Positions 2,424 through 63,145 of a DNA stretch of 64,000 nucleotides are shown here, piece after piece. A program made the translations under genes and the position numbers. Every line of letters begins with the position of its first letter. The stretch's first letter is position 1. The stretch spans positions 224,001-288,000 of the forward strand of contig CBDCRI010000001.1 of the NCBI GenBank assembly GCA_965220965.1. Direction: 5' to 3'. This DNA comes from Candidatus Marinacidobacterium sp. Its GTDB lineage: Bacteria > Acidobacteriota > Vicinamibacteria > Marinacidobacterales > Marinacidobacteraceae. The notes under the pieces are model-generated. The model worked only from the letters and a program-made list of their open reading frames with translations. It was not told where the DNA came from and ran no database searches.

Positions 2424-2921
2424 TTGGCCACCAGATGCCTGATCGGGATGGAGCAGCCGCGAGGCAGTGTCCTTTACGCCTACTGCCATTGTGACGGCTA
2501 TCCAGACAGCCTGGGCGTCGGGCGTGACCTGCTGAACGGCCTGCGGAGCCCGGAGGCGGTCGCGGCGATTGTCGCAGGCGGCAACATGATCGCGGTCGTC
2601 GACGGACTCCCCAAGCGGTTCGAGCCCTTCTCGCCGCCGGTCACGGTCGATGACGCGGACGCCTTCGTCGCGGAAATGGAGGGCCTCAACGCCGAGTACC
2701 TGTACCTCTTCACCCGGCAGGGCGACTGGCTGTGCTACGGCCACTGGCGGGGCGAGGGCGACGCATGGCGCGACCTCAGGGAGTACCGGGAGCGCATCGA
2801 GGCTGACGCGCGCTCGCCCTCCAGGCCGGGCGGGCCGGCCGGCGGCGGTCCGGGCCGCGCCGGGCCGAGTGCGGGCCAGCGGGGAACGGGCCGGCAAGGG
2901 CACGGGGCGCAGCGCCAATGA
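2424..2921 (+). CDS. Conserved phage/plasmid hypothetical protein (YCHxDGYP motif)
   Basis: TTG start with AGAGGAG RBS and TACAAT -10 upstream; MATRCLIG...YAYCHCDGYP...AEYLYLF pattern. Confidence 0.7.
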   Translation: MATRCLIGMEQPRGSVLYAYCHCDGYPDSLGVGRDLLNGLRSPEAVAAIVAGGNMIAVVDGLPKRFEPFSPPVTVDDADAFVAEMEGLNAEYLYLFTRQGDWLCYGHWRGEGDAWRDLREYRERIEADARSPSRPGGPAGGGPGRAGPSAGQRGTGRQGHGAQRQ

Positions 2922-3388
2922 CAGGGAACGGCAGGATCGACGGCATCCGCGTGCGCGTCACGCCGCGGCGCAGCTGGCGGCTGCAGCTCGTCAGGCTGTC
3001 GGGGGAGTGGCACGCCCTCGTGAAGGGCCGCAGCCAGGCTCCGGTCGAGGCCAAGGCCCGCACGGCCCAAGCCGCGCTGGAGCGCGCCTTGGGCGCCTGG
3101 GCCGACAGGCCCGAGGTGACGGCTGCCGCGCCAAGGTCGGCCGGAGCCTTGGCCTTCGAGTTGCCTGATGAGGACGGCGCCTGGCTCTGCCTGAGGCACC
3201 GGGGGATGGACGCCACGTGGTCCTGCGAGTTCGGCAGCGTGGCCCGCCGGCGAACCGTCACCGGGCACCGCTGCCCGGAGGACGCCATCGCCGCCGCGTC
3301 ACGGGCGTGGCCGGCGGCCATTGCGCCCCTGCGCCTCGGCGCCGGGCCGCCTCCCCCGCCAAGCCGGCCCGCGGCCGGCGGTCCCTGA
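2918..3388 (+). CDS. Hypothetical protein
   Basis: ATGA overlap with upstream stop. Confidence 0.55.
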   Translation: MTGNGRIDGIRVRVTPRRSWRLQLVRLSGEWHALVKGRSQAPVEAKARTAQAALERALGAWADRPEVTAAAPRSAGALAFELPDEDGAWLCLRHRGMDATWSCEFGSVARRRTVTGHRCPEDAIAAASRAWPAAIAPLRLGAGPPPPPSRPAAGGP

Positions 3389-3407
3389 CGTCCCCGGGCG
3401 CCGCCCA

Positions 3408-4445
3408 ATGCCGGTCTCCATAGTCGTCGGCGGCCAGTTCGGCTCGGAGGGCAAGGGCAAGGTCGCCCACTGGCTCGCGGCCCGGCAGCAGGCGTGCCAC
3501 GCCGTTCGCGTCGGCGGCCCCAACTCGGGCCACACCGCGCTCTCCGAGGGCCGGCTGCGCGCGTTCCGCCAGCTCCCAACCTGCATCCTGCATGAGCCCG
3601 TGGTCGGCGTCATCCCCGCGGGGGCCTACGTGGACGAGGCGCTCCTGCTGTCGGAGGCGGAGGCCGCCGGCATCGACGAGTCCCGGCTGCTGATCCATCC
3701 CGATGCGGTCCTGCTCGACGAGTCCATGCGCGAGGAGGAGCGCCGGGCCGGCCTCGTCGAAGGGGTCGCCTCGACCGGACAGGGCGTCGGCGCGGCGCTC
3801 AGGCGGCGCGTCATGCGCATGCGCTCCGTCAGGTTCGCCCGCGACTCCGAGTCCTTGCGGCCATTCCTGCGGCCGGACCTGGGCGCGCGCCTGGCCGAGG
3901 CGCTCGACCGCGGCGGCCGCATCGTCATCGAGGGCACGCAGGGGTTCGGGCTGTCGCTGCTGCACGGCGGCCACTACCCGTTCGCCACCAGCCGCGACAC
4001 CACCGCCGCGGGCATGCTCTCGGAGGCCGGCCTCAGCCCCCGCGACGTGGACTGCGTGTCGCTGGTGATCCGCGCCCTCCCCATCCGCGTGCAGGGCAAC
4101 TCCGGCCCCCTCCCCCGCGAGACCTCCTGGGCCGAGGTGCGGCGCCGCAGCGGGGCGGGCGTCGACCTGGCCGAGACGACCACCGCCACCGGCCGGCGGC
4201 GGCGGGTGGCGCGCTTCGACCCCCGCGTCGTGCGCCGCGCCATCGCCGTCAACCGCCCGAGCCAGCTGGTGCTCAACCACGTGGACCTCATCGACTGCGC
4301 GGCGCACGGCAAGTCCCGCCTCACCGCGCGCGCGGGCGCCGCGGTGGCGGACATCGAAAGCTCGCTCGGCGCGAGGGTCGACTACGCGGGCACCGGCCCG
4401 GGCAGCCTCATCAGCCGCCCTGCGGGCGGCTGGGCCTGCGGCTAG
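3408..4445 (+). CDS. Short adenylosuccinate synthetase-family protein, PurZ0-like
   Basis: GGQFGSEGKGK (Ser at the PurA catalytic Asp), GGPNSGHT, IEGTQGFGLS, YPFATSRDTT, PIRVQGNSGPL, TTATGRRRRV; about 345 aa. Confidence 0.85.
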   Translation: MPVSIVVGGQFGSEGKGKVAHWLAARQQACHAVRVGGPNSGHTALSEGRLRAFRQLPTCILHEPVVGVIPAGAYVDEALLLSEAEAAGIDESRLLIHPDAVLLDESMREEERRAGLVEGVASTGQGVGAALRRRVMRMRSVRFARDSESLRPFLRPDLGARLAEALDRGGRIVIEGTQGFGLSLLHGGHYPFATSRDTTAAGMLSEAGLSPRDVDCVSLVIRALPIRVQGNSGPLPRETSWAEVRRRSGAGVDLAETTTATGRRRRVARFDPRVVRRAIAVNRPSQLVLNHVDLIDCAAHGKSRLTARAGAAVADIESSLGARVDYAGTGPGSLISRPAGGWACG

Positions 4446-5028: not shown

Positions 5029-5985
5029 TCACGGGCCCGGCGCGGCCGCCCCCCGGCCCGGCGAGGCCTTGGGCGAGGGATCCCACATGTGCCTGGCGGC
5101 GCCCATCCACTCCGCAACCGCGCACGCCTCGAAGGCGGCCGCCATGCTGGGCAGCCCCCGCCCGATCGCCTGCCGGCCGCCGACGTCCCGCTCCAGCCAG
5201 GCGTGCCAGCCGCCGTCGGCCTGGCCCACGCGGTAGAGGCCGTGCGCCCACAGACCGTCGCCGGCCGCCGCCCAGTGCCAGGCCCGGAGGGCGGCCGCCG
5301 GGTCGCCACGGTAGGTCCAGCGCAGGCCGCTCTCCATTGCCTGCGCCCGCCAGGCCGCGCCGAGCCGTCCGGCGCGGACCAGGTTCTCGAAGTGGGACGA
5401 GCGCAGCGTCCGCCGCAGCCGCAGGCTGCCGGCCTTGCCCGGCCAGCCGCGCTCGCTGAAGTAGCCGGCCGGCCCCTTGAGGGCGGCCAGCCCGACCGCG
5501 GCGTGCCACTGCGCCCGCGCCAGCGCCTTGGCCGCCTGGGGCCGGAAGGCGTGCTCGGAACCGTAGTGGGCGTCCATGCGGGCGGCGACCTCGTCGAGGC
5601 CCAGCGCGGAGAGCGCGCGCGGCCGGCCGGCCGCGCCGTGCCCCATCAGGTCCATGGCCGCGTCCATCAGGCGGCACAGCATGGCGGCCGACTCCTCCAG
5701 CCGCCGGAAGTCGTAGAGCGGGCGCTCGCCGGGGCGCTCGATGACGTGGCGGGACGCGTCCACGGCGCCCGCCATGTGCGGGGTGCCGGCGGGGTCGTCG
5801 CGGCGGCGGGGCGCGGCCCCGGAGCGAATCCCGGCCAGCGCCAGCGTTCGCGGGTCGAGCCGCCACTCGCCGCCGGCCAGGCCCTGGGCGAACCGGTCCG
5901 CCAGCCCGCGGCTGCGGGCGCCGCAGGCGGCGGCCTCGGCCCCGGCGAGGGCCGCGGCGGCCCGTTCGGCCTCGCGGGGACTCAC
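5029..5985 (-). CDS. Hypothetical protein, paralog of 6758-7753
   Basis: Shared blocks e.g. YDFRxLEESAAMLxRLMDAAM, ALARxQWxAxVxLAxxKGPAxYF, WAHGxYRV; GGGAGG RBS. Confidence 0.75.
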   Translation of the reverse strand: MSPREAERAAAALAGAEAAACGARSRGLADRFAQGLAGGEWRLDPRTLALAGIRSGAAPRRRDDPAGTPHMAGAVDASRHVIERPGERPLYDFRRLEESAAMLCRLMDAAMDLMGHGAAGRPRALSALGLDEVAARMDAHYGSEHAFRPQAAKALARAQWHAAVGLAALKGPAGYFSERGWPGKAGSLRLRRTLRSSHFENLVRAGRLGAAWRAQAMESGLRWTYRGDPAAALRAWHWAAAGDGLWAHGLYRVGQADGGWHAWLERDVGGRQAIGRGLPSMAAAFEACAVAEWMGAARHMWDPSPKASPGRGAAAPGP

Positions 5986-6053: not shown

Positions 6054-6623
6054 CTAGGGGCCTGGCGGGGCGGACGGGGCGGCGCGCCCGCTCGCCGCCG
6101 CGCCGGCATCGGCCCCGGGGCCAGGCCGCAACTGGCGCTCCGCGCGGCAGCCCCCTTGCTTGAAATGGGCATCGTCCGGCTGGTGGATGTCCTCATCCGA
6201 GCTGGTGACGACGGCGGCCGCGCCCCCGGCGGTGTCGAGCACCACGACGACATCCCCCCAGGGCTGCTTGATGGCCTCGTGGAACGCGGCCAGGGCGTCG
6301 TCCTTGTCCCTGTGGGCGGACAGGAAGTCCCCGACCGTGGCCAGGTCGAAGTCCAGCGCGTAGAGGATGGTCTGGCTGATGACGCGGACCTGGTAGCGGT
6401 GGTAGCGGTCCGGAACGCCTTTCCAGAGCGTCCTGCCGTTGAAGCGGTCGAGAACGAGGATGGTGCAGTCGGGATGGGCGCGGACGCGGCGCTCGGCCTC
6501 CTCCAGGGCGGCGCGCCTGTCGTTGGTGAGGGACGGGGGGTCGAACAGGTCGATCCCGCCCTCGTCGACGGTGCGGATGGCGTATCGGGGCGCCAGTTTC
6601 TGGCGCGGGGCGTTGGCGTTCAT
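6054..6623 (-). CDS. Hypothetical protein with two internal similar modules
   Basis: ATG at 6623 with GAGGAGA RBS; RY-x-[IV]-R...AL...[IV][LV]VLD pattern occurs twice. Confidence 0.65.
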   Translation of the reverse strand: MNANAPRQKLAPRYAIRTVDEGGIDLFDPPSLTNDRRAALEEAERRVRAHPDCTILVLDRFNGRTLWKGVPDRYHRYQVRVISQTILYALDFDLATVGDFLSAHRDKDDALAAFHEAIKQPWGDVVVVLDTAGGAAAVVTSSDEDIHQPDDAHFKQGGCRAERQLRPGPGADAGAAASGRAAPSAPPGP

Positions 6624-6757: not shown

Positions 6758-7753
6758 CTAGGGGCTTGGGGAGGCGGACCGAACCGGGCGCCCGGCCGCC
6801 GCAGGCGAGGCGGGCGCGGGGGCGCGGTCGACGCTGAAGTGGTGCTCCAGCCGGCAGCCCCAAGCGTGCTCCGCGCACGCCGCGTAGGCCTCGCCGCGGC
6901 TGTCGTTGGCAAGGCCGACCGACCAGCGGTAGTCGGAGAGGTCGGACTTGCGCGAGGCGTGCCACCGCCCGTCCTCCAGCCAGACGCGGTAGGCGCCGTG
7001 CGCCCAGGCCGCCTCGCCGACCCGGGACCACTCCCAGTACCAGGGGGCGGGCGCCGGGTCGCCGAAGTGCGTCCAGCGCAGCCCGTGGGCGGCGGCGCGC
7101 CGCCGCCAGCGCTCGTCGAGCTCTCCGAACTTGATGGCGGTGGCGATGCGCTTCGAGTGCAGGGTGCGCATGAGGGCGTTGCGGTCGCGCGCGAAGTAGG
7201 GGGCGGGTCCCTTGGCGCGGGCCAGCGCCACCGACGCGTTCCATTGCCCGCGCGCCAAGGCCCGCAGGATTCCGAAGTCGAGCCGGTTCGTCCGTTCCAG
7301 CGGCAGGCCCGACTCGAGGGGGAGGCTGTCGATCTGGCGCAGCTCGCGGCGGCAGCCCGCAGCGGCCGCGCCCACCATGGCCATGGCCGCGTCCATCAGC
7401 CGGCTCAGCATGGCGGCGGACTCCTCCAGGCCGCGGAAGTCGTAGCGCTCGCTCGCCGCGAAGCCGGGGACGGCGTGGCGGCCGAGGTCCACCCGGCCCA
7501 CCATCGGGTCGGCCCCCTCCGGCTCGCGTCCGGTGCGCGCCGGCACGAGGCCCTGCCCGAGCCCGACCGCGGCCCGGGTCGCCACGTCAAGCCCCCATTC
7601 GCCGCTCAGCAGGCCTTCTGCGAAGCGGCCGGCAAGCCGCCTGCGCCCAAAGGGGCCGTTCAGGCCGTCGGCCTCGGCGAGCGCCAGCGCTGCGCTCCGC
7701 ACGACGCGCTCCTCCGGCATTTCGGCCCTCATTGTCTCCGCGTTCGCTCCCAT
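6758..7753 (-). CDS. Hypothetical protein, paralog of 5029-5985
   Basis: AAGGAG RBS; shared blocks with 5029-5985; ends SPSP. Confidence 0.75.
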   Translation of the reverse strand: MGANAETMRAEMPEERVVRSAALALAEADGLNGPFGRRRLAGRFAEGLLSGEWGLDVATRAAVGLGQGLVPARTGREPEGADPMVGRVDLGRHAVPGFAASERYDFRGLEESAAMLSRLMDAAMAMVGAAAAGCRRELRQIDSLPLESGLPLERTNRLDFGILRALARGQWNASVALARAKGPAPYFARDRNALMRTLHSKRIATAIKFGELDERWRRRAAAHGLRWTHFGDPAPAPWYWEWSRVGEAAWAHGAYRVWLEDGRWHASRKSDLSDYRWSVGLANDSRGEAYAACAEHAWGCRLEHHFSVDRAPAPASPAAAGRPVRSASPSP

Positions 7754-7886
7754 GCCTGCTCCTTGACCGCTTCGGGGGTGTGCACGCCATTAAAGCGGCC
7801 CGCGCCCGAATGGCCCCCGGGCGCGCGGCCCAAGGCCGCCGCGAATCCTAGAATGGGCTTGGCAAACCGACGGCGGGGAGGCCGTG

Positions 7887-8318
7887 ATGCCCGACTTCGT
7901 GGAGCCCAACAGCCGGCAGGTGGGCGGCCGTCACTACAAGACGGTCGACTACGAGCCTTGGGACTTCGTCGCCGACTGCGGCCTGGACTACTTCGCCGGC
8001 ACCGCCGTGAAGTACCTGGTCCGGCGCAAGGGCGACCGCGCCGAGGACCTGGAGAAGGCCGTGCACTTCCTGGAGAAGCGCGCCGCGGTGGCCGCCGCGC
8101 GGCCCGGGCGCTGGGGCCGGCCTCCCGAGCGGGACGGCGAGCCCGCCAGCGGGCGCCTCGGCCGCCTGTGCCGCGCCCACGGCGCCAGCGGGGCGGTGCG
8201 CAAGGCGCTGGAGCGCCTGCTCGCGGGCCAGTGGCTCGCCGCCGCCGCCGCCGCACGGGAGGAGATCGCGGCGCTCCCCGGCTCCCAGGCTGCGCCCGGC
8301 CGCGGACCGCGGCCCTAG
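7887..8318 (+). CDS. DUF3310 (SaV-like, putative nucleotide kinase) protein
   Basis: QVGGRHYK...EPWDF...YFAGTAVKYLVR.KG...EDLEKAVHFLE; TAGAAT at 7849-7854; GGAGG RBS. Confidence 0.85.
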   Translation: MPDFVEPNSRQVGGRHYKTVDYEPWDFVADCGLDYFAGTAVKYLVRRKGDRAEDLEKAVHFLEKRAAVAAARPGRWGRPPERDGEPASGRLGRLCRAHGASGAVRKALERLLAGQWLAAAAAAREEIAALPGSQAAPGRGPRP

Positions 8319-8345: not shown

Positions 8346-8996
8346 ATGGCCCTATCCCTTGCACTGCACACGCCGCATCCCCTGCGCGACGAGGCCGCCT
8401 TGGAGCTGCTGCTCGGCGGCACGGTCAGCTGGAAGGCCGCGGCGGCGGCCACGAAGGCCGTCCCGCCGGCGGTGGTGTTCCCCGACTTCTCCGACCTGGC
8501 CTACACGGGCGAACGGCTCCAGGGGGCCAAGCTCGCCGTGGCCGTGGCCCGGCGCGTGGCCAAGCGGCCCCCGCCAGGGGAGCGGCCGTGGAGCCAGGTG
8601 TCGGCGGAGATGCCGTTCGTGGACATCCGGGTGTACATGATCCCGCTGCGCGGGACGCCGGCCCCAAGCGTGGGGGTGGACATCGACGACTCCTCGGGCC
8701 TGATGGAGCACGTCAGCGCGTACCTCGCGGAGGTCTGCGCCGGCCTGCTCCTGGAGACGGGCAGCCGGGAGGCGGTGGCCTTCGACTGGCAGTCCGAGGA
8801 CGACCAAGGCCAAGCGTTCGCCAGCGCCGAGGGCGTCGTCCACTCCCAGCCCCCCGCCTGGCGCCGAGAGGCGCTGCGCCTCCACCAAGCGGGAGGCATC
8901 GAGGCCGTTCGCGCCTTCGCGAACGCCGCTGGCGCGCCCCCGCTCCGGCCCGTGGGCGCCGCGGGGCCGGAACGCTCGCTGGGGCCGTCCCCTTAG
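8346..8996 (+). CDS. Hypothetical protein (C-terminal region similar to 10496-11155 and 60429-61040)
   Basis: GAGGAG RBS; helix followed by [AG]F[DT]W strand pattern; ends GPSP. Confidence 0.65.
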   Translation: MALSLALHTPHPLRDEAALELLLGGTVSWKAAAAATKAVPPAVVFPDFSDLAYTGERLQGAKLAVAVARRVAKRPPPGERPWSQVSAEMPFVDIRVYMIPLRGTPAPSVGVDIDDSSGLMEHVSAYLAEVCAGLLLETGSREAVAFDWQSEDDQGQAFASAEGVVHSQPPAWRREALRLHQAGGIEAVRAFANAAGAPPLRPVGAAGPERSLGPSP

Positions 8997-9137: not shown

Positions 9138-10499
9138 GTGGCGGCCGCTGAGCGCGAGCTCACGCAACCGGCGGACCGCCTGTTCAGGCGCGCCGAGCCC
9201 GTGCTCAGCAGGCACTTCGGCCCCAGCGCCTGCGCCGTCGGCGGAGGCGCGGCGCTCGCTGCCCTCTGGGGCCACCGGCGCTGCGCGCGCATCGACCTCT
9301 TCATCGACGGTTCGGCGTACCGGGCCGTGGCCATGGACGTCCGGCGGCGGGCCGCGCTCGAGGACGGCCTGCTGCGGGCCCTTCGCCCGGTGCGCCTGGA
9401 CGTGGCGTGCGGACGCCTCAAGGCGCTGCTCGCCGGCGGCGAGGTCACCGTTTCCACGTCCCCGGCGCCGATCGCGGCGGACCGCCCCTTCCCGCACCGG
9501 GTGGCGGGAACATGGACCGCCCTCGAGCCGCCATCCCTTGCCCTGGCCCGCAAGATCCACGGGCGAATGCTCGACAGGGGCCTGTTCCTGGCCCGCGACC
9601 TGCACGACGCCGCGGCGGCCGCCTGCCTTGACCGGGCAGCGCTGGCCGCCGCCCTGGATGCCTTGACGGCAGGGGAGCGGGCGGCGCTTGGCGACGAGCT
9701 CGACCGGCTTGCGGATGCCCAAGGGGGCGCCGCACGGCTCTTGCCCCCCTTCAGGGCGGCGCTGGCCGGGGACTGGCCGGCCGCGGCCGCCCTGGGCGCC
9801 CCCGCCGCAGGCCGCTGGCCCTCGCCCGCGGACGTCCCCGACCTCCGCGCGGTCCGCGCCGCCTACGCCGCCGGCCCGCCCGGCGAGGCGTTCGCCGGCG
9901 TGCCGACCCGGGAGGAGCGCGTTGCGGAGAGCGAGCGCGCGCTGCTTGGCCTGTGCGTCGCGGGCGGGCGGGATCCCGCCGCCGCGCGCCTGGGGCCGCA
10001 CGGCGCCCTGCTCGGCGGCCCCGGCCAGGCAGGGCGGTGCCGCTCGCCGGCGTCCCGGCTGGCCGAGGACTACGCCCCGGTCCGCCTGGCGCCCCCCGCC
10101 TGGTTCTCGCACGACCGGCCGGCGGAGGGCGCCCAAGACGCTGGGCGGGGCATCCTCGCGATGCTGGTCGCCGCCCACATGGCCGGCGTGCCACGGGCGG
10201 ACCGGCCGACGCCCGACGCCTTGCGGCGGGCGTTCGACGCCGACCCGCCGAGTCCCCTCGAGCGGTTCTGGCTGCATGAGGTGCTGGCCTGCGGGACCGT
10301 GAGGGAGCTGCGCGCCCTCATCCAGGAGACGGGCATGCCGCTGGGCACGTTCGTCCGGGGGCTGCACGCCGCCGGCGTGCGGCGCCACGACGTGGCGGAC
10401 TGGATCAACCAGTTCGCGGTCGAGCCGGCGGTGGGAGAGCCCCGCCTAGCCCTCTGGAGGGCGCCGAAGGGCAAGGGGCGGGCCCCCGCCCCCGGCTAG
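9138..10499 (+). CDS. AbiEii-like nucleotidyltransferase (degenerate) fused to partner domain
   Basis: VGGGAALAALWGHRRCARIDLF and RDLHD resemble AbiEii motifs; C-terminal ADWINQF region resembles 41250-41855; start uncertain (GTG 9138). Confidence 0.7.
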   Translation: MAAAERELTQPADRLFRRAEPVLSRHFGPSACAVGGGAALAALWGHRRCARIDLFIDGSAYRAVAMDVRRRAALEDGLLRALRPVRLDVACGRLKALLAGGEVTVSTSPAPIAADRPFPHRVAGTWTALEPPSLALARKIHGRMLDRGLFLARDLHDAAAAACLDRAALAAALDALTAGERAALGDELDRLADAQGGAARLLPPFRAALAGDWPAAAALGAPAAGRWPSPADVPDLRAVRAAYAAGPPGEAFAGVPTREERVAESERALLGLCVAGGRDPAAARLGPHGALLGGPGQAGRCRSPASRLAEDYAPVRLAPPAWFSHDRPAEGAQDAGRGILAMLVAAHMAGVPRADRPTPDALRRAFDADPPSPLERFWLHEVLACGTVRELRALIQETGMPLGTFVRGLHAAGVRRHDVADWINQFAVEPAVGEPRLALWRAPKGKGRAPAPG

Positions 10500-12011
10500 C
10501 GCGGACGCAGGCCCCTTGGGAGCTGGAAGGGGCGCCGGCGCTTCCGGGCCGGCTCCGGCCGATTGCGCGCGGCCGTGCGCTTGGCGTCCGCCAGCGCGCC
10601 GCGCGCCTCGCGCAGCTCCTCCAGCGCCTCGCCCGACTCCCAGGCCATGGCCGCCTCCGGGCCGCCCGCGTCGTAGTCGCTGCGCACCGCGTCGAACCAG
10701 GCGTCGGGGTTGTCCATGACGACGCAGCCGCGGGCCACGAACACCAGCCCGCCGTGGCCGTTGCCGCCCCACGTGAACCCGATCCGCGCGTCCGAGCCCA
10801 CGTCCTCGAGCCATGCGGCGAGCAGGTGCGCGCAGAGCTCGACGGCCTGGGAGGACTCGGCGCAGTCGCAGGACACGGTCAGCAGCACCGGCGTGACGAG
10901 CAGGCGGTAGGCGTGCGGCAGGTGCCCGTCCGCGTCGAGGAACGCCGCCCTTTCCGCACGGCCCTCCGGGCCGTCGTCGAACAGGTCCATGGCGTCGGCG
11001 ACCCCCGCCCGGATTTCCCGCAACGCGGCGCGCTCCTCGTTGGACCACTCGGCCTCCCCCCTGCCGGGCGGCGGCCGCCCGAACAGCAGCGCCAGCCTGC
11101 GGGCATGGGCGGGCGGGACCGACATCACGTGGCTGACCTGGAACTCTATGGACATGGGGCCCCCTCTTCAGATTCGTCGCAGCGTCCGGTTGGCTGCGCG
11201 GCGCCTCGATTGTAGCGTTCCGCTGGGGATTGAAGACCCCGGCGGCCATGCGCGGCTCGGCGGGGTAGCCGTAGGGGTTGCCGATGCAGCGGGTGGCCCC
11301 CACGCGGTAGTCGTAGGGCTCGTGCGTGTGCCCGGACACCCACAGCTGGGCGCCCACCTCGCGCACCAGGTCGGGGCGGTCGTTGATGAAGTACGGGTTC
11401 AGCAGGTCGCCGTAGAAGCGCGGGTGGATCGCCTCCTTCGTCGGCGGCCAGTGCGTCACCACCACGTCGACCTCTCCGGCCGCGGCGCGCAGCCGCTCGG
11501 TCTGCTCGCGGTGGGCGCTGACGTGCCGGTCCACGGTCCAGGGCGCGCCCCAGCTGAAGCCCGGGTGGAAGTCCGTGATCGCGCCGCCCACCATCTCGTG
11601 CAGGCGCCTGCCCTCGACCGTGCGCGGGGAGGCCCCCCAGAGGTCGGAGTACCATGGACCGCCCCAGAAGCGGACGCCGTCGATCACCGCCGCCTCTCCG
11701 AGCAGGAAGAACAGGCCCGGCCGGGCGTCCGCCATCGCCTTCCAGTCAGCGTCGATCTCCTGGCGCATCTGCCGGCTGTAGTACTCGTGGTTGCCGGGCA
11801 CGTAGACCACCGGCGAGACGCGCAGCTCCCGGTCGATGAACTCAATGGCCTGGTGCTCGATGCCGATGTCGCCGGCGAGCACCAGCAGGTCGCGGCCGAT
11901 GAGGGGCTGGAAGGCGTCCGGCGGGGGCAGCGGGGCGCAGGGCCTGCGGCCGCGCCGGGCGTGGGCCTCCAAGTGCAGGTCGGAGGCGACCTGGATGGTC
12001 AGCTCGCCCAC
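10446..12011 (-). CDS. Calcineurin-like metallophosphoesterase (domain ~11200-12011; 3' extension probably from a lost stop)
   Basis: SDLHLE, LAGDI, VPGNHEYY, VTHWPP, SGHTHE, GNPYGY motifs. Confidence 0.85.
   Translation of the reverse strand: MGELTIQVASDLHLEAHARRGRRPCAPLPPPDAFQPLIGRDLLVLAGDIGIEHQAIEFIDRELRVSPVVYVPGNHEYYSRQMRQEIDADWKAMADARPGLFFLLGEAAVIDGVRFWGGPWYSDLWGASPRTVEGRRLHEMVGGAITDFHPGFSWGAPWTVDRHVSAHREQTERLRAAAGEVDVVVTHWPPTKEAIHPRFYGDLLNPYFINDRPDLVREVGAQLWVSGHTHEPYDYRVGATRCIGNPYGYPAEPRMAAGVFNPQRNATIEAPRSQPDAATNLKRGPHVHRVPGQPRDVGPARPCPQAGAAVRAAAARQGGGRVVQRGARRVAGNPGGGRRRHGPVRRRPGGPCGKGGVPRRGRAPAARLPPARHAGAADRVLRLRRVLPGRRALRAPARRMARGRGLGRADRVHVGRQRPRRAGVRGPRLRRHGQPRRLVRRGAQRLRRGRPGGGHGLGVGRGAGGAARGARRAGGRQAHGRAQSAGAGPEAPAPLPAPKGPASALAGGGGPPLALRRPPEG
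10496..11155 (-). CDS. Hypothetical protein
   Basis: GAGGGG RBS and TACAAT -10 upstream; ELCAHLLAAWL...IGFTWGG..GGLVFV. Confidence 0.7.
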   Translation of the reverse strand: MSIEFQVSHVMSVPPAHARRLALLFGRPPPGRGEAEWSNEERAALREIRAGVADAMDLFDDGPEGRAERAAFLDADGHLPHAYRLLVTPVLLTVSCDCAESSQAVELCAHLLAAWLEDVGSDARIGFTWGGNGHGGLVFVARGCVVMDNPDAWFDAVRSDYDAGGPEAAMAWESGEALEELREARGALADAKRTAARNRPEPARKRRRPFQLPRGLRPR

Positions 12012-48504: not shown

Positions 48505-48516
48505 TGGGAACGAAAC

Positions 48517-48745: not shown

Positions 48746-48750
48746 TGACT

Positions 48751-48824: not shown

Positions 48825-48858
48825 GTGCGGCGCCGGCCGGACCGCCGGCGCCCGCCAC

Positions 48859-53201: not shown

Positions 53202-53657
53202 TCAGGGACCAGGTGGGGCCGGCTTGGCCAGCAGGCCCTTGGCTTCGCAGTGCGGGCGCAGCCCGGACTCCTTCAGGAACGCGGGCACGACGAAGGCCAG
53301 GGCCGTGCCGCACTGCGCGTCCACCAGCCGCCCTCCGCCGTCCGCAAACTGCCCGAAGGCGCGGCACAGCTCAATGGCCTCGGCCTCGCACTGGATGGGG
53401 CCCATCCCCTCGCAGAAGACCTCCTCGATGAGGGCCGTGCCCCTCGGCCAAGCGTCCCCGCCGTCCCCCGTCATGCCGTCGGCCATCACCGCCAGCATGC
53501 CCTGCAGGCCGCGCCACTCCGAGCAGGTCATGTCGACGTCGCCCGCCGCGGCATGCGCCCCCGCGTGCGCGGCCAGCGCCAGCAGCGCGAAGGCGCCTGC
53601 ACGCGCCGAGCCGACGATCGATGCGCGGCGCCGCCGTCGATGAAGCCCAGCCAACAT
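53202..53657 (-). CDS. Secreted six-cysteine helical protein, paralog of 55397-55861
   Basis: Signal-like hydrophobic segment ending AHA; RGLQGMLA.MADGM, PRGTA.IEE.FC, CGTALAF, FLKES.LRPHC shared. Confidence 0.75.
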   Translation of the reverse strand: MLAGLHRRRRRASIVGSARAGAFALLALAAHAGAHAAAGDVDMTCSEWRGLQGMLAVMADGMTGDGGDAWPRGTALIEEVFCEGMGPIQCEAEAIELCRAFGQFADGGGRLVDAQCGTALAFVVPAFLKESGLRPHCEAKGLLAKPAPPGP

Positions 53658-53902: not shown

Positions 53903-55186
53903 GTGCCCTGGCTGGACCGCCACAGGGAGAGCGAGCGCCTCGCCGGCGCGGCCGAGGCCGCCGCCCGCGAAGGCCGTGCCCAGGCCGCGCGCGAGCTGCG
54001 CCTGCAGGCGCCGCCCATGCGCACCCCGGGGAGGCCCGTCTCCCTTGAGGCGTTCCTCGCCGACCCCGTGGATCCGGAGCGTTCGGGGATCTTCGCCGGC
54101 CGCGCCGCCGAACTGCAATGGCTGCATGCGCAGGTCGCGACGATGCGCGGCATGTGGGAGCGCCGCGGCGAGGTGCGGGGCTCGATGCGGACGGTCACCG
54201 GGTGTCCCGGCATCGGCAAGACCGCCTTGCTGCGGCGGTTCGCCGACCGATGCGCGGACGAGCTCCTGACCGTCGAGGCAACGCCCGACGACCTGCGGTC
54301 CTTGGAGGCGCTGAACGAACGAGCCAGGGCGCGGGTCGCGCCCGCTTTGGGCGCCCTCCCCGAGGCCGAGCTCGCAACCTTCAGGCTCGACGCCGCCGGG
54401 CGGTTCCTGGGCAGGCTTGCCGAGCGGCACGGGATCGAGCGGCACGGCGTCCTGCTGCTGCTCGACGATGCGCAGCAGGTCGCGCAAGGCCATCACGATG
54501 CGGCCATCCACTTCCTGCACACCGGCTCGCTGGGCCAGCCGGTCTTCCCGTTCCTGTTCGGCTTGAACGGCACGCGCGACGCCCTTGAGCGGGCCGGCGC
54601 CCCGCGCGTTCCGCCGGAGAGCCGCATCGGCCTGTCGACGCTGCCTCCCGAGGACGCCGCAGCCGCGCTGCGCAACTTCGAACGGGCCTTCTCCGTGGAG
54701 GCGCCGCCGGACTTGGCCCAGCGCCTGTTGGCGGACAGCCGGGGCTTTCCGCAGCACCTGGACTCCGCCCTGCGGTCGCTGGGCGAGGAGTGGCTGAGGG
54801 CGGGGCGCCGAAAGGACCGCCTTGACGCAGCCGCGGTGGTGCACAGGGCACGGGCGCTGCGCGAGGCGTACTGCGAAGGCCGCTTCGGACCGCTGGCCAA
54901 AGACCCCCGCGCTGCCGGGCTGGTCGATGTCGCGAACCGGCAGGGCCTGACCGTTGCGCAACTGCACGTCGCGGCCACCCGGGCGCACCGGGACGGCGGT
55001 TGCGGTGCGAAGGAGGCGGAGGATGCGGCCACGGCCCTTGTTGCCGCCCTGTTTCGGGCCGGCGCGCTCTCCGAGGGCGACGACGGCATCTGCCGGACGC
55101 CCATTCCGTCATTCCTGGCGTGGATCCGCGACACGCGGAGCGGCGGGCGCCGCGCCGGGCCAGCGCCGCGCCGGCCTTCCCCGTGA
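53903..55186 (+). CDS. AAA_16/STAND-like P-loop ATPase
   Basis: FAGRAAEL, Walker A GCPGIGKT, Walker B LLLLDDAQ, GFPQHL; start uncertain (53903 or 54017). Confidence 0.8.
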   Translation: MPWLDRHRESERLAGAAEAAAREGRAQAARELRLQAPPMRTPGRPVSLEAFLADPVDPERSGIFAGRAAELQWLHAQVATMRGMWERRGEVRGSMRTVTGCPGIGKTALLRRFADRCADELLTVEATPDDLRSLEALNERARARVAPALGALPEAELATFRLDAAGRFLGRLAERHGIERHGVLLLLDDAQQVAQGHHDAAIHFLHTGSLGQPVFPFLFGLNGTRDALERAGAPRVPPESRIGLSTLPPEDAAAALRNFERAFSVEAPPDLAQRLLADSRGFPQHLDSALRSLGEEWLRAGRRKDRLDAAAVVHRARALREAYCEGRFGPLAKDPRAAGLVDVANRQGLTVAQLHVAATRAHRDGGCGAKEAEDAATALVAALFRAGALSEGDDGICRTPIPSFLAWIRDTRSGGRRAGPAPRRPSP

Positions 55187-55396: not shown

Positions 55397-55861
55397 TCAG
55401 GGACCGGCCTCAGGCCGCCCCTGCCCGTCCAGCAGGCCCTTGGCGTCGCAGTGCGGGCGCAGCTCGGACTCCTTCAGGAACGCGGCCGCGGCGAAGGCCA
55501 AGGCCGTGCCGCACCGCGCGTCCACCTGTCGGAGCAACTGCACGTCCTCGAACTGCGCGACGGCGCGGCACAGCTCAATGGTCCAGGCCTCGCACTCGAT
55601 GGGACCAATCTCCCTGCAGAAGGCCTCCTCGATGAATGCCGTGCCCCTCGGCACAGCGTCCTCGCCGTCCTGCGCCATGCCGTCGGCCATCTCCGCCAGC
55701 ATGCCCTGCAGGCCGCGCGAATTCGGGCAGGTGAATTCTAGGTCGCCGGCAGCGGTCTGGGCTCCCGCGTGCGCGGCCTGCGCCAGCAGCGCCAAGGCGG
55801 CCGCAAGGGCCGCGCCGCCGATTCGGGCGCGGAACCGCAGCCATTCCAGTTCGCCTTTCAT
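55397..55861 (-). CDS. Secreted six-cysteine helical protein, paralog of 53202-53657
   Basis: Same conserved blocks and six Cys as 53202-53657. Confidence 0.75.
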   Translation of the reverse strand: MKGELEWLRFRARIGGAALAAALALLAQAAHAGAQTAAGDLEFTCPNSRGLQGMLAEMADGMAQDGEDAVPRGTAFIEEAFCREIGPIECEAWTIELCRAVAQFEDVQLLRQVDARCGTALAFAAAAFLKESELRPHCDAKGLLDGQGRPEAGP

Positions 55862-56136: not shown

Positions 56137-56421
56137 TCAGGGGCTTGGCCCCGGCCGCGGCGAGCGGGCCGCCGCAGCCAGCCAAGCCTCCTCCGTGGGA
56201 GCCGTGATGGTCGCAACCGCGTTTTCGGCGGCGTATTGGACGCCTTCGGCAACGGTGTCGAACACCTCCAAGGAGATCATGTCCTGCGCCCGACCGGCCT
56301 CGGAGCTTTCGATGCGCAGGAACACCTCGCAGGCGCCGGTCTTGCCCAGCTCCTGCACGTCGATGCAGATCGTGTGCGTGGGGTCGCTCATGGTCCTCTC
56401 CGAAATGGGGTCGGACTCCAT
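56137..56421 (-). CDS. Small hypothetical protein
   Basis: Likely start 56391 (GAGAGG RBS); ends RPGPSP. Confidence 0.55.
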   Translation of the reverse strand: MESDPISERTMSDPTHTICIDVQELGKTGACEVFLRIESSEAGRAQDMISLEVFDTVAEGVQYAAENAVATITAPTEEAWLAAAARSPRPGPSP

Positions 56422-57206: not shown

Positions 57207-57848
57207 TCAGGGCGAGGGCGAGGCGGCGGCCCTGCGCATGGCGTCGCTGACCGCGCGCCTGCGGCGCCGCTCGGACGGGGCCGCACGCTGAAGGGCCTCG
57301 CGCCCGGCCTGGTCGGGCGGACGCATCAGGGGTGCGGCCAGCCCCAGCGAGGCCTTGGCCCAGGCGTTGACCTCGTCGGGGTCGATGCCGCCCCGGCGCC
57401 TTTCGGCCACGAGCACGGCCTCGGCGACGGCGGCCTCGCCAATGAGCAGCGCATCGCGCGCCGCGGCTGCCGGGGACCGGGGCCGCGCCGCCCGCCCGGG
57501 CAGGCCGGCGGCGATCGAGCGCGCCCTCCATGCCTGCTCAAGCGTCAGGGCGGCCGCGCGGTACGCGCTGTCCGGGCGGGCCAGCTCGTCCTCGAGCCAC
57601 TGCCGCGCCGCCCTGCCGGCCGCCCTCACGCAGCGCTCCTTGGCGTCGTCGGCCATGCGTGCGGACTGCAAGGCCCTGGCGGCGACGCCCTCCTGGGCCG
57701 ACTGGACGCCTTTCAGCGCCTGGGCCATGGCGGTGGGCAGGATGACGAGGGGCTGGCCCGAGGCGAGCGCCGCCCCGTGCAGCAATTGGCGCGTGGCCGT
57801 CCGGGCCAGCAGCCGGCCATCGGGCGCCAAGGGCCGCACCGGCTTCAC
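57207..57848 (-). CDS. Degenerate PIN-like paralog of 27331-28275
   Basis: LAPDGRLL/VILPTA/RDALLIGEAAV/IDPDEVNAW align with VDANIL/VLPRV/GDRMVIAEASV/IDRRRVNAW. Confidence 0.65.
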   Translation of the reverse strand: MKPVRPLAPDGRLLARTATRQLLHGAALASGQPLVILPTAMAQALKGVQSAQEGVAARALQSARMADDAKERCVRAAGRAARQWLEDELARPDSAYRAAALTLEQAWRARSIAAGLPGRAARPRSPAAAARDALLIGEAAVAEAVLVAERRRGGIDPDEVNAWAKASLGLAAPLMRPPDQAGREALQRAAPSERRRRRAVSDAMRRAAASPSP

Positions 57849-60428: not shown

Positions 60429-61040
60429 ATGGCCAAGCTGACGACGAAAGCCGAGTTCCTCTACCAGGTCGACCTGCCCGACGGCGTGGACGCCGCCGTT
60501 GCCGCGGCGGCGATGGATGCGGTGATGAACGCGCCCGCCCGTTGGGAGGCGCCCTCCCGCGCGGATGCTCGGTTCCCGGACGCCTTCCCCATGGGCTGGC
60601 AGGGCGCGGGGGAGCATCCGCAACGGGTCCGCAAGGCCGCGGAGCCGCTGGCCCTGGCCCTGCTCGAAGCCGTTCGCGGCTTCGAAGGCGCGGTCCCGGC
60701 CGCGGCCGGGGGCGGCCCCCGCCCCCTCTCGCCGGGCGGCGCCAAGTTCAGGGACGGCGGCAAGCACGGTGCGCGCGGCGTGCTGGTGGGCGCCTTCGGC
60801 GCGGGCGACCCGGAGGCCGCGGCGGCTGTGACGTCCGCGGTCCTCAAGCACTTCGGCCTCGACCCGTTCTGGTTCGAGTGGCGGGAGCCGGAAGGCCAGC
60901 CGGCCCCGGCGCGGATGGGCGCCGCGGCCTGCAGCCCGGCCGGCGGGGAGGTCATTGACCTGTCGCCGGGAAGGCGGCCAGCCGCCGCCGGGGGCCGCCG
61001 CCAGCCGGAATCGAGCCGGCCCGGCCCGCCGCGGCCCTAG
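60429..61040 (+). CDS. Hypothetical protein (family of 8346-8996 and 10496-11155)
   Basis: GDPEAAAAVTSAVLKHF...WFEW...GAAAC; TGCTAGAAT upstream. Confidence 0.65.
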   Translation: MAKLTTKAEFLYQVDLPDGVDAAVAAAAMDAVMNAPARWEAPSRADARFPDAFPMGWQGAGEHPQRVRKAAEPLALALLEAVRGFEGAVPAAAGGGPRPLSPGGAKFRDGGKHGARGVLVGAFGAGDPEAAAAVTSAVLKHFGLDPFWFEWREPEGQPAPARMGAAACSPAGGEVIDLSPGRRPAAAGGRRQPESSRPGPPRP

Positions 61041-61195
61041 GACGGACGCCCCGCCATCGCCCGGACGCCCGTGGCGAAGCGCAAGCCCCGGCACCGCCAA
61101 GCCCCCCCTCCGGGGCGGGGGCGCGGGTCCGGCGCGGGCGCGAACTCCTACAATGAGGCCAAGCCCGCAGGTTCCGTCCACCGAGGAGATTCCCC

Positions 61196-62569
61196 ATGAC
61201 CGAGCACCTTGACGGCACGCCCGGCGTCCCCGGCGCGGCCTTCGCCGTGAGCGCGTCCGACGCGCTGGCCGCCGCTCGCCACCTTGCGGCCCCGGAGGGC
61301 CACGGCGGCCGCCCCGAGTGGGACATGGCCATGGCCGAGCGCCTCGCCGAGGAGGGCTTCCTGGCGCGGCTGCGGCGGGCGGCGGCGCCGGAGAGCGCGC
61401 AGCCCGTGTCGCCGCTGGCCGCGCTTTGGACGGAAAGGCTGCTGGGCGCGGCCCCGCGCTACCTGCGGGAGGACGGGCAATGGCTGGCGTCAACCGCGGG
61501 CGCCATGCTGCCGGCCAGCCGGCTCACCGGCAGCTTCAGCGATTCCTGGCGAATCCGCCGGGCGCGCGATGCCGCCTGGAACGCGGCGCGGGACGCCTTG
61601 GCCTGCGCCCTGCCGCTCCTGCCGCCGGAGGCTTGGCGGGGGCCGCCCGGGCTTGCGGAGGGCCTTGGCCCTGAGCCGGCGGTCGAGCCCCTGGACGGGA
61701 ACGCGCCCTGCGACCGCCTCTCCGGACGGCGCCTGCTGGGCATGATCGAGCGCTTGGGCAGGGACGCCGCCGCAGCTCGGATCGATGAGCGCTCCGAGCC
61801 GCTCCGGCCCGGTCCGGAGGCCGCCCGCAGGCTCGGGCTGATGGCCGATTGCGTGTCCCTTTCGGCGTTTGTCGAGCTGGAGGTGCGGTACGTTTGGGCG
61901 GGGCCCGTCCCGGGAGCGACGCGCCAGCGGGTCTTCAGGGAGGCCTTGGGCGGAGCGGTCCGGGCGCTGGGGGGCGAGGGGATCGGCGATGCGCTGGTCC
62001 GGTCCGCCATCGGCCTGGCGACGGTCCGCTTCCACGGCGGGCCAGCCGAGTCGGGGCGGCACCTGGCGCACGCCCATCGGGTCGAGGCGCTGGTGAACGT
62101 CCACGGCGGCACCCCGGAGCAACGGTGCGCCGCCCTGCTCCACCGCTTTCGCGACGCCGAGCCCCCGCCGGACCCAGAGATTGCCGACGGGCTCGCGGGG
62201 CTCAGCCTGAGCGGGCACTTCGGCCCGCAGGTGGCCGCCCTGGTCGAGGGGCTGTCGGAAAGGAGCCGGCCCGGCGACGGGGACCGGGCCGCCCGCCGGG
62301 CCATCGACCACGCCCATTGGGCGGACCAGCCGCCGATGGCGAAGGCGGTGCGCTGCGCGGACGTCGCCTGCCGCCTGACGGCCTTGCGCGATGGGGACGC
62401 GGACGCCGCGAGGCGCGGAATCGACGAGGCGCGCGCGCTGGTGCCGCGGCTCAGCGACGCAGTGCCCAAGTCGCTGTGGACCGCGGCCGAGGAGGCGCTG
62501 GCGGCGGCTGAGGCGCTTTTTCCGGAGGGGCCGGCGGCCGGCCTGCGTTCGAGCCCGCCCGCGCCCTGA
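61196..62569 (+). CDS. Protein with a C-terminal HD (SpoT/Mesh1-like hydrolase) domain, degenerate
   Basis: HLAHAHRV, AALLHR (vs LLHD), FGPQVAALVEGLS, AVRCAD; GAGGAG RBS. Confidence 0.7.
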   Translation: MTEHLDGTPGVPGAAFAVSASDALAAARHLAAPEGHGGRPEWDMAMAERLAEEGFLARLRRAAAPESAQPVSPLAALWTERLLGAAPRYLREDGQWLASTAGAMLPASRLTGSFSDSWRIRRARDAAWNAARDALACALPLLPPEAWRGPPGLAEGLGPEPAVEPLDGNAPCDRLSGRRLLGMIERLGRDAAAARIDERSEPLRPGPEAARRLGLMADCVSLSAFVELEVRYVWAGPVPGATRQRVFREALGGAVRALGGEGIGDALVRSAIGLATVRFHGGPAESGRHLAHAHRVEALVNVHGGTPEQRCAALLHRFRDAEPPPDPEIADGLAGLSLSGHFGPQVAALVEGLSERSRPGDGDRAARRAIDHAHWADQPPMAKAVRCADVACRLTALRDGDADAARRGIDEARALVPRLSDAVPKSLWTAAEEALAAAEALFPEGPAAGLRSSPPAP

Positions 62570-62587
62570 GCGCGGCCCCAGGCGGCC

Positions 62588-63145
62588 CTACGGGCCGATC
62601 GAGGCGCCGCGGGGCTTGGCCGCGGGGGGCAGCCGGGACGCCTCGCGCTCGGCCGAGAAGGGAAATCCCATGCGCGCCATCGCCCCCGCCATGGCGGCCA
62701 CCGCGCCGGCGGCGTGGTGGATGCTGTCCTCAAGCACGTTGGCGCCCAGCCAGTCCGCCCGCCAAAGGCCGCGCCAGGAGCCGTCGTCCTCCAGCTGGCG
62801 CGTGACCGCGATGATCGTGGGGCCGCCGAACTGCCTCCAGGGCCGGTCCCCGCGCCTGGCGGGCGTGATGTAGGCGTAGGCGTGGACGGTGCCCGCGGGG
62901 TTGCCGCGCCACTCGTGGCGCGGCACCGCGAGTCGCCTTCCCACCGCGTAGCCGCTCATGCCCTCGATCCGCGCCAGGTCGCCCACCCACCACGGCTCGC
63001 GCTCCCACATCTCGGCCTCGATGAGCTCGCCCGCGGTGATCTCCCCAGCTTTGCGGCGCGCGGCCGCCTCGGGGGCCCATCGGCCGGTGTCCCGAACGAG
63101 CAGGCCGTCGTCGAGGGCCGCCCCGATGTCGCCGTAGACCTTCAT
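62588..63145 (-). CDS. Hypothetical protein
   Basis: CCTATAAT upstream; GAGGGG RBS. Confidence 0.65.
   Translation of the reverse strand: MKVYGDIGAALDDGLLVRDTGRWAPEAAARRKAGEITAGELIEAEMWEREPWWVGDLARIEGMSGYAVGRRLAVPRHEWRGNPAGTVHAYAYITPARRGDRPWRQFGGPTIIAVTRQLEDDGSWRGLWRADWLGANVLEDSIHHAAGAVAAMAGAMARMGFPFSAEREASRLPPAAKPRGASIGP

Follow-up and report, generated by a model that had tools for sequence, protein, structure and literature searches.

The stretch analysed here, hereafter the window, comprises 64,000 nucleotides of contig CBDCRI010000001.1 (positions 224,001 to 288,000, forward strand) from the Candidatus Marinacidobacterium sp. assembly GCA_965220965.1, and belongs to a large replicon that combines a plasmid RepA_C gene with phage-type genes (a PurZ-like enzyme, NrdJ, DUF3310, a viral-type phosphoesterase, methyltransferases and nine tRNAs). 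Its G+C content is 73.3%, ranging from 63 to 79% over 2-kb windows, with lower-GC islands at ~28-34, 48-52 and 58-60 kb. A gene caller self-trained on codon usage returned 69 coding sequences (CDS) covering 79.5% of the DNA. Many of the encoded proteins share the way in which they end: 27 of the 69 (~39%) have proline as their last residue, and 18 (~26%) end in P-x-P. An additional gene, 21735-22496 on the minus strand, with a G+C content at third codon positions (GC3) of 0.96 and the tail KAPAP, was missed by the caller owing to overlap with its neighbour. With this gene counted in, the totals become 28/70 and 19/70, exactly those of a first-pass annotation of the same DNA, which had counted about 28 Pro ends and 19 P-x-P ends among roughly 70 CDSs and had read them as a candidate signal for mass protein transfer. 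All 19 tails that it quoted stand directly before the stop of open reading frames (ORFs) of 116-588 codons, its coordinates being the low coordinate of each gene, which is not always the 3' end. The Pro-ended genes, referred to below as tagged, are listed here with their last residues and stop codon.

2918-3388 (+): CDS of 156 aa; tail SRPAAGGP-TGA; Pro end, not P-x-P
5029-5985 (-): NrdJ-fragment-like paralogue, 318 aa; tail RGAAAPGP-TGA; P-x-P
6054-6623 (-): CDS with uncertain start (ORF open to 7244); tail APSAPPGP-TAG; P-x-P
6758-7753 (-): paralogue of 5029-5985, 331 aa; tail VRSASPSP-TAG; P-x-P
7884-8318 (+): DUF3310 protein, 144 aa; tail APGRGPRP-TAG; P-x-P
8346-8996 (+): CDS of 216 aa; tail ERSLGPSP-TAG; P-x-P
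15791-17398 (+): CDS of 535 aa, homologue search empty; tail AKRPSPSP-TGA; P-x-P
18298-18804 (-): DUF3085 protein, 168 aa; tail RPHSAPAP-TAG; P-x-P
18883-19386 (-): DUF3085 paralogue, 167 aa; tail TRRPGAAP-TGA; Pro end
19441-21054 (-): RNB / RNase R-like exoribonuclease, 537 aa; tail RPRRRARP-TAG; Pro end
21051-21347 (-): DUF433 protein, 98 aa; tail APAPLGGP-TGA; Pro end
21735-22496 (-): CDS of 253 aa, GC3 0.96; tail CKAPAP-TGA; P-x-P
22210-23928 (+): first of three paralogues, start uncertain (22615 in the first-pass annotation); tail GPAGSPGP-TAA; P-x-P
24145-25455 (+): second paralogue, 436 aa; tail GPAGSQRP-TGA; Pro end
25736-27076 (+): third paralogue, 446 aa; tail LDRGSPAP-TAG; P-x-P
36973-37449 (-): CDS of 158 aa; tail GRHAGTAP-TGA; Pro end
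37496-38776 (-): CDS of 426 aa; tail KRPSGPAP-TGA; P-x-P
39457-40380 (+): pentapeptide-repeat protein, 307 aa; tail PRPAGLAP-TAG; Pro end
40486-41253 (+): AbiEii-like nucleotidyltransferase, 255 aa; tail PNPNGPAP-TGA; P-x-P
47159-47908 (-): phage-type metallophosphoesterase, 249 aa; tail ERGAAPAP-TGA; P-x-P
53202-53657 (-): Cys-rich protein with signal-peptide-like N-terminus, 151 aa; tail AKPAPPGP-TGA; P-x-P
53903-55186 (+): AAA_16/AAA_22 ATPase, 427 aa; tail PAPRRPSP-TGA; P-x-P
55397-55861 (-): paralogue of 53202-53657 with signal-peptide-like N-terminus, 154 aa; tail QGRPEAGP-TGA; Pro end
56137-56421 (-): CDS of 94 aa; tail SPRPGPSP-TGA; P-x-P
57207-57848 (-): CDS of 213 aa; tail RAAASPSP-TGA; P-x-P
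60429-61040 (+): CDS of 203 aa; tail SRPGPPRP-TAG; P-x-P
61196-62569 (+): HD_4 domain protein, 457 aa; tail LRSSPPAP-TGA; P-x-P
62588-63145 (-): CDS of 185 aa; tail PRGASIGP-TAG; Pro end

The proline ending and its controls

Proline accounts for 7.4% of all residues in the window proteins and internal P-x-P occurs at a rate of 1.0% per position; the last position departs from this bulk composition, with Pro at -1 in 39% of the proteins. Between positions -20 and -4 the Pro frequency is 13.2%, and the terminal excess over that level is significant (p = 7e-8, binomial). Across the 69 CDS, Pro is about 3-fold enriched as the last residue, Ala and Arg end 8 and 6 proteins, respectively, and Pro and Gly jointly terminate 35. 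The ending is independent of the stop codon that follows (TGA 43, TAG 22 and TAA 4 in total; 16/43, 10/22 and 1/4 tagged). Spurious ORFs are not responsible for the bias, since of the 24 genes with support from Pfam, PHROG or NCBIfam, 10 end in Pro and 6 in P-x-P.

Aligned at their stops, the 27 tagged proteins yield the consensus R(-7)-[P/R](-6)-x-[G/S](-4)-P(-3)-[A/G/S/R](-2)-P(-1)-COOH, in which Pro(-1) is present in 27/27 by definition of the set. Position -2 holds Ala (9), Gly (8), Ser (6) or Arg (4), and never Pro (p = 0.005), Asp or Glu; position -3 is Pro in 18 proteins (p = 2e-8), position -4 is chiefly Gly (8) or Ser (7), position -6 is Pro (7) or Arg (6), and position -7 is Arg in 11 (p = 0.0008). 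Gly-Pro directly before the stop (GP-stop) is the second commonest ending (8/27). Codon use adds a further layer. Pro(-3) is spread over all four codons (CCG 9, CCC 4, CCA 3, CCT 2), which places the signal on the amino acid and not on a DNA word, and the rare A/T-ending Pro codons are enriched at this position (5/18, p = 0.035). The terminal Pro is encoded by CCC in 17/27 genes compared with 38% internally (p = 0.007), and in the untagged genes C precedes the stop 19 times and G 10 times. An (x-Pro)n repeat was considered and rejected, no periodicity being found upstream of -3, as were AT-hook tails, GRP occurring in 2/27 tagged and 7/42 untagged tails.

GC3 is 0.923 in tagged and 0.886 in untagged genes, and tagged genes are also longer. 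When the genes are divided into thirds by GC3, Pro ends number 4/23 in the lowest third and 12/23 and 11/23 in the other two. The tag is concentrated in genes of the replicon's own composition, and it follows composition, not functional class. The first-pass annotation had already seen that RepA, NrdJ, the PurZ-like enzyme and most lower-GC genes lack it, in agreement with the count for the lowest third.

Base composition does not account for the ending. Within the window, CCN precedes 14.1% of the 1303 non-gene stop triplets and 1.8% of them follow P-x-P, while the 325 shadow ORFs of at least 100 codons end in Pro in 13.8% and in P-x-P in 2.2% of cases. Ten control loci (464 genes) submitted to identical gene calling gave 30 Pro ends and 4 P-x-P ends. 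These loci, a contig of an Albidovulum metagenome-assembled genome, Kineococcus pKRAD01, an Azospirillum thermophilum plasmid, three pieces of a Kitasatospora plasmid, Arthrobacter phage Nubia, an Azospirillum argentinense chromid, a Paroceanicella plasmid and a Rhodanobacter plasmid, span 61-71% G+C and all lie below the 73% of the window. In Fisher tests of the window against the first nine of them (403 genes), the difference is significant for Pro ends (p = 4e-12) and for P-x-P ends (p = 5e-13). G+C content as the sole cause was rejected on the strength of the non-gene stops and shadow ORFs of the window and of the ten control loci, these loci not exceeding 71% G+C. The comparison with internal positions and shadow ORFs that the first-pass annotation had suggested leaves the terminal excess standing (39% and 26% against 14% and 2%).

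Neutral changes of stop position do not reproduce the ending either. A stop-loss model, in which each real stop is replaced by the next one downstream, gives, for the three frames in turn, Pro ends in 17/68, 10/68 and 12/69 cases and P-x-P ends in 3, 0 and 2. In a stop-gain model, stops created by point mutation in the last 20-40 codons fall after Pro in 12-15% of cases and after P-x-P in ~2%. Under either model Pro and P-x-P ends would be much rarer than observed, and neutral extension through loss of the stop was rejected along with neutral truncation through point mutation.

Several readings at the DNA level were likewise discarded. No coding signal in a competing frame was found in the last 90 nt of the genes or in the 150 nt past their stops, the next genes apart, and third-position G+C is high throughout the tails; assembly frameshifts and wrong-frame tails are ruled out by the lack of alternative-frame coding signal. 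A programmed +1 shift at CCC-TGA/TAG was rejected because the few +1 coding signals are accounted for by the start of the next gene. Past the stops of tagged genes there is no conserved base and no DNA common to tagged ends; the longest run shared across a stop, of 9+3+4 nt, is confined to a single pair of tagged ends. Elsewhere in the window, CCN-NNN-CCN-stop occurs at 23 scattered sites, none of them directly 3' of a gene end. A frame-independent DNA motif or mobile mini-element is ruled out by the unshared 3' DNA and by this scatter, a terminator-like hairpin by the small number of tagged stops within a hairpin loop (3/27, compared with 9.9% of 1300 control stops), and a C-rich Rho-loading tract by a C-over-G skew confined to the last 30 nt. 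The Pro ending is real, frame-specific and carried by the amino acid rather than by a DNA word.

Tails beyond the conserved domains

Two thirds of the window proteins carry tails rich in Pro, Ala, Gly, Arg and Ser (P/A/G/R/S), an oddity separate from the Pro ending: these residues make up at least 65% of the last 20 positions in 45/69 proteins compared with 36/464 control genes. Pro ends occur in 24 of these 45 proteins and in 3 of the 24 remaining ones, and control genes with equally rich tails, from seven loci, have 2/29 Pro ends and no P-x-P end. The tagged tails are 77% P/A/G/R/S over the last 20 residues, with a mean net charge of +2.0 compared with +0.8 in untagged proteins. Codon usage in the tails is poorer than in the gene bodies, the genes running a median of 12 codons past the coding-score maximum, and several tails, by reading of the gene ends, are near-tandem hexanucleotide repeats.

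The phosphoesterase (47159-47908) has 716 database relatives at E <= 1e-5, the best 120 of which were compared, with tails viewed for 70 of these 120. In those 70, the family mostly ends in ...TTLERIExVE(G), 6-7 residues before the end of the window copy, to which RGAAPAP is added; a 94% identical relative from an independent record ends in RGAAAAP. Among the best 120, Pro ends number 12 and P-x-P ends 1, and homologues at 60-68% identity, some on 5-6.7 Mb contigs, lack the tail. In an AlphaFold2 model of the window protein (40 sequences; mean predicted local distance difference test score, pLDDT, 93.7), residue 244 closes the last helix and coil is predicted for the five residues at the very end, the last three of them below 50 pLDDT. 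Similarly, the RNase R model alignment stops at residue 521 of 537 in 19441-21054, DUF3085 homology at residue 155 of 167 in 18883-19386, and the DUF3310 domain covers residues 16-63 of the 144 encoded by 7884-8318, followed by a long tail. As judged from these alignments, the tails are add-ons beyond the conserved family ends. This is what the first-pass annotation had described, and the question it had raised, whether homologues lack the tail, is answered in the affirmative for the phosphoesterase, whose relatives mostly end before the extension (70 of the best 120 viewed).

The Pro ending also survives in paralogues whose tails have otherwise diverged. The paralogues 5029-5985 and 6758-7753 are 41% identical with unalignable tails and both end in P-x-P; an indel separates the tails of 53202-53657 and 55397-55861 but leaves GP at the end of each; and all three paralogues within 22210-27076 end in Pro.

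The AbiEii-like protein (40486-41253) stands apart. It has distant relatives only, at most 38% identical, and no match among plasmids. Among 149 representatives of these relatives, the last residue is Pro in 33 and Arg in 48, and Gly occupies -4 in 45; in the closest 40, the corresponding counts are 16, 15 and 19, compared with 8/119 Pro ends among RNB relatives. The endings tend to take the form G-x-x-P or G-x-E-R after a variable disordered tail, and the G-x-x-[P/R] end is thus an AbiEii-like family trait outside the window replicon too, in less G+C-rich sources.

A candidate protective end and competing explanations

The best explanation of the motif is a selected peptide ending, specific to the replicon or its lineage, at the tip of P/A/G/R/S-rich tails. 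Selection on the free C-terminus is suggested because the signal lies at the peptide level, is anchored to the end, goes with floppy tails and is retained between paralogues, and because the tag occurs on cytoplasmic and exported-looking proteins and is absent from enzymes with structured conserved ends. For its role, we tentatively favour, with a probability of about 0.3, an end cap against C-terminus-dependent proteolysis on disordered extensions. The extensions would have arisen by growth of ORFs into G+C-rich 3' flanks, and selection would then have fixed those stops that give Pro-x-Pro as the ending. A free C-terminus that is floppy and Ala-rich could serve as a handle for tail-specific, ClpXP-type and exopeptidase attack in cytoplasm and periplasm, a handle that Pro(-1) and Pro(-3) would block, while -2 may be kept free of Pro, Asp and Glu since the corresponding dipeptides stall termination hardest. 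The Pro ending would then be a cap for protein stability, not an address label. A comparable device is known from eukaryotic secreted peptides, in which, according to the peptide-hormone literature, terminal proline "brackets" shield against exopeptidases; there too Pro lies at or near the terminus of flexible ends and is sometimes doubled. We know of no description of such brackets as a proteome-wide habit of a bacterial replicon. Passages of Weber et al. 2020 (PMC7246954) state that C-terminal residues affect bacterial protein levels largely via degradation.

Several observations weigh against a protective cap. In passages of the same study (Weber et al., PMC7246954), C-terminal Pro is without effect on expression in the one species tested, and GP-stop is depleted across bacteria, yet it ends 8/27 tagged proteins here. 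With a generic anti-degron, Ala should be strongly depleted at -1, and Gly, Arg, Asp, Glu and Lys should be enriched there as well; only Pro is enriched. Arg(-7) and Gly/Ser(-4) have the look of a recognition motif rather than that of a passive cap, and the G-x-x-[P/R] ends of the distant AbiEii-like relatives are not predicted by a replicon-specific cap. The preference for CCC at the terminal Pro and for C over G before the stop of untagged genes further points to a smaller codon-level or ribosome-level selection superimposed on that for the peptide.

The ribosome itself provides a possible if doubtful alternative, in which a nascent ...R....P-x-P end slows release at the stop and so sets expression, transfer-messenger RNA (tmRNA) tagging or downstream coupling. 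The residues through which arrest peptides touch the peptidyl-transferase centre and the tunnel lie at -1 to -4 and ~-7, as do those of the motif; a ribosome effect would act alike on cytoplasmic and exported proteins, and the CCC preference (17/27, p = 0.007), together with the C before the stop in untagged genes, places part of the signal at the codon level. Arrest peptides of the RAPP/RAGP type (SecM, ApdA/ApdP) likewise have Arg and Pro or Gly-Pro in their last few nascent residues, but they are dedicated short leader ORFs and not enzyme ends, and a tetrapeptide RAPP, RAGP or RAPG is found in 1/27 tagged and 1/42 untagged tails of the window. Hayes, Bose and Sauer are said to have described in 2002 stalling of termination at Pro-stop with SsrA tagging, reportedly strongest for Asp-Pro and Pro-Pro, and Pro ends are reportedly avoided in the E. 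coli-type organisms in which the effect was found. The likeness is that C-terminal Pro directly precedes the stop, as in 27/69 window proteins; the difference is that such stalling is a cost, while the window favours Pro ends and never has Pro, Asp or Glu at -2 (0/27), the strongest stallers, PP-stop and DP-stop, being absent. A +1 or read-through product is unsupported, as there is no post-stop coding signal beyond neighbouring genes; a same-strand downstream neighbour follows 21/27 tagged and 28/42 untagged genes, without clear difference; TAG and TGA genes are tagged alike (10/22 and 16/43); and the window has no release factor, tmRNA or EF-P gene. Pro and Gly, which passages of PMC7246954 cite as the slowest residues to release, end 35/69 of the proteins.

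An address label, that is, a short linear signal for a receptor encoded elsewhere on the replicon (the coupling protein of a type IV secretion system, T4SS, or, should the element be a giant phage or phage-plasmid, a packaging or compartment-import machine), seems unlikely. It would account for a position-specific motif at the free C-terminus (Arg(-7) in 11/27, Gly/Ser(-4), Pro(-3), Pro(-1)) that is found on unrelated proteins and persists in diverged paralogues, as a docking motif would, on disordered tails of positive mean net charge (+2.0 against +0.8 in untagged proteins, last 20 residues), in a replicon that mixes RepA_C with phage-type genes (PurZ-like, NrdJ, DUF3310, viral-type phosphoesterase, 9-tRNA array). 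Substrates of VirB/D4 T4SS, for which Vergunst et al. in 2005 reportedly gave the C-terminal consensus R-x7-R-x-R-x-R, also bear unstructured, Arg-containing, hydrophilic C-termini on unrelated mobile-element proteins, and to our knowledge their signals do not end in Pro. The tagged proteins share with them an unstructured extreme C-terminus (the motif at -1 to -7; low-confidence coil in the phosphoesterase model) but not the charge and the consensus: 1/27 tagged tails matches the consensus, and net charge over the last 20 residues is zero or negative in 7/27. Pfam, PHROGs and NCBIfam return no T4SS component, coupling protein or relaxase among the 69-70 window proteins, the window being 64 kb of 363,302 bp, nor any portal, terminase or capsid match; that no T4SS genes lie in the window had been stated from the start. 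The first-pass annotation had also remarked that two tagged proteins have N-terminal signal-like segments, and these are the paralogous pair 53202-53657 (-) and 55397-55861 (-), small Cys-rich proteins with, by eye, Arg-rich signal-peptide-like N-termini. This pair, which looks Sec- or Tat-exported, comprises the only clearly exported-looking tagged proteins. About 40% of the genes are tagged, ordinary enzymes included, and the tag tracks composition, not function. The absence of a T4SS from the window, the single consensus fit in 27, the exported-looking tagged pair and the tracking of composition leave the mass-transfer (T4SS) idea unsupported; the fallback proposed with it, a shared stability or termination control, fares better and remains a proposal. 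A broader version, in which R-x3-P-x-P-COOH would serve a giant orphan phage-plasmid, possibly with 2-aminoadenine DNA, as an address or handling tag across its proteome, and a dedicated receptor for it would lie elsewhere on the 363-kb replicon, is improbable. Were such an address tag real, its reader might be a chaperone or protease that binds tails, a coupling protein, or a machine for packaging or compartment import, and about 40% of the element's proteins, together with distant AbiEii-like proteins, would be sorted or timed as a cohort.

There is also a slim chance that the ending is a neutral by-product, G+C pressure drifting ORFs into Pro/Ala/Gly/Arg flanks and the ending reflecting where stops can arise or persist, or else a functionless habit shared across the host genome. 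The poorer codon usage of the tails (median 12 codons after the coding-score maximum), the rare A/T-ending Pro codons at -3 (5/18, p = 0.035), as expected of young sequence, the higher frequency of the tag at higher GC3 and the near-tandem hexanucleotide repeats of several tails all fit such an origin, and passages of PMC7246954 report that the Pro(-1) bias varies between bacterial lineages. Against it, stop-loss and stop-gain models reach 12-25% Pro and 0-4% P-x-P, compared with the observed 39% and 26%, and shadow ORFs and non-gene stops 14% and 2%; Pro is excluded at -2 and Arg enriched at -7; the last residues are retained between paralogues whose tails otherwise differ; and control genes from seven loci with equally biased tails have 2/29 Pro ends and no P-x-P. 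An artefact, in which spurious ORFs would supply the tails or frameshifts in the assembly would put real genes into a wrong, Pro-rich frame, is very improbable. Out-of-frame translation of high-GC DNA is indeed Pro/Arg/Ala/Gly-rich, and 45/69 proteins have such tails, but competing frames around the stops show no coding signal except that of the next genes, third-position G+C stays high along the tails, shadow ORFs lack the bias, 10 of the 24 homology-supported genes are tagged, and the independent 94% identical record retains the extension and its terminal Pro. The artefact reading is largely refuted.

A full-text literature search returned no described Pro-x-Pro C-terminal tag or Pro-ended T4SS signal beyond the bias paper of Weber et al. 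2020, and Pro ends are not mentioned in the consulted passages of the review PMC13602936. In the corresponding passages of Weber et al. (PMC7246954), bacterial proteomes display a lineage-dependent Pro bias at -1, and GP-, PP- and DP-stop are depleted overall. That bias resembles the present one in that the last residue departs from bulk composition. It differs in being a motif-free, phylum-wide trend with GP-stop depleted (PMC7246954, same passages), while the window represents one replicon with 39% Pro ends, a defined motif on added disordered tails and GP-stop in 8/27. Known C-terminal biases are mild lineage-wide trends, and an ending defined over seven residues and present on about 40% of one replicon's unrelated proteins was not found in print; it runs counter to the general avoidance of Gly-Pro and Pro ends. 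If the stability cap is correct, it would show how proteins cope with disordered tails forced on them by extreme G+C and would offer a simple portable tag; if instead the ending acts in termination or serves as an address label, mobile elements would have a hitherto undescribed means of managing their proteome as one block.

The replicon and its other genes

The carrier of the ending is itself unusual: the replicon measures at least 363 kb, has 73% G+C and encodes RepA, NrdJ and a PurZ-like enzyme along with a tRNA array. The RNB protein of the window (19441-21054) is listed on a 363,302-bp contig and the 94% identical relative of the phosphoesterase on one of 726,488 bp, from which it follows that the element is very large and that public metagenome data contain at least one close relative. 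Its other relatives are distant. Besides its own record, the best relative of the RNB protein is 46% identical; a database search with the 535-residue protein 15791-17398 found no relative; megablast and blastn searches of PLSDB returned no nucleotide match to the window. RepA, DUF3085, the phosphoesterase, the PurZ-like enzyme and NrdJ are at most ~41% identical to plasmid and phage sets, and no match to NrdJ in GTDB species genomes or phages exceeds 43% identity, a scan of genome contigs reporting one locus, at 43%. From these searches the replicon appears to be a near orphan, with almost no relatives in 5.8 billion proteins.

The nine tRNA genes form an array at 47965-48943 (-), with Lys-CTT, Arg-GCG, Ser-GGA, Ser-TGA, Arg-TCT, Ser-GCT, Ser-CGA, Ala-CGC and Tyr-GTA, which adjoins the phosphoesterase on one side and a lower-GC island on the other. 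ARAGORN predicts all nine and Rfam confirms six; none of the nine has a near match in PLSDB, and the array contains neither tRNA-Pro nor tRNA-Gly. The adenylosuccinate-synthetase-like gene 3408-4445 (+) scores best with the archaeal-type PurA model PRK04293 (258 bits, below the cut-off of 368) and second best with PurZ (211 bits, below the cut-off of 300); it matches PHROG 1211 and is ~40% identical to the PurZ of Arthrobacter phages, which hints that the element may make 2-aminoadenine DNA. A weak dUTPase_2 match lies at 34174-35163, and no search was aimed at a DatZ/MazZ-type partner.

Three genes of DNA-methyltransferase type lack the Pro ending: 29653-32502 (-), encoding a 949-residue Eco57I-like fused enzyme within a 63-69% G+C island, 41845-42459 (-), encoding an MT-A70 enzyme, and 49359-50396 (-), encoding an N6/N4 methylase. 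The three tandem paralogues of 22210-27076 (+), of ~436-446 residues and 70-77% identical, have no family match in Pfam, PHROGs or NCBIfam. The paralogues 5029-5985 (-) and 6758-7753 (-) are 34-35% identical to residues 319-480 of the window NrdJ (44178-46763) and look like free-standing derivatives of this segment of the ribonucleotide reductase. The IS630-family transposase-like gene 12350-13285 (+) scores 88 bits, below the cut-off of 100, and its TAA stop lies inside a ~24-nt direct repeat (GGCCGAGG-TTATTTAAACCCTTT, two copies, 13262-13320), the one AT-rich spot in the vicinity; the gene may represent an insertion sequence that is truncated or has degenerated. Lastly, TAG is frequent as a stop (22/69), and in the convergent genes 9138-10499 (+) and 10496-11155 (-) one palindromic CTAG (10496-10499) provides the TAG stop of both.

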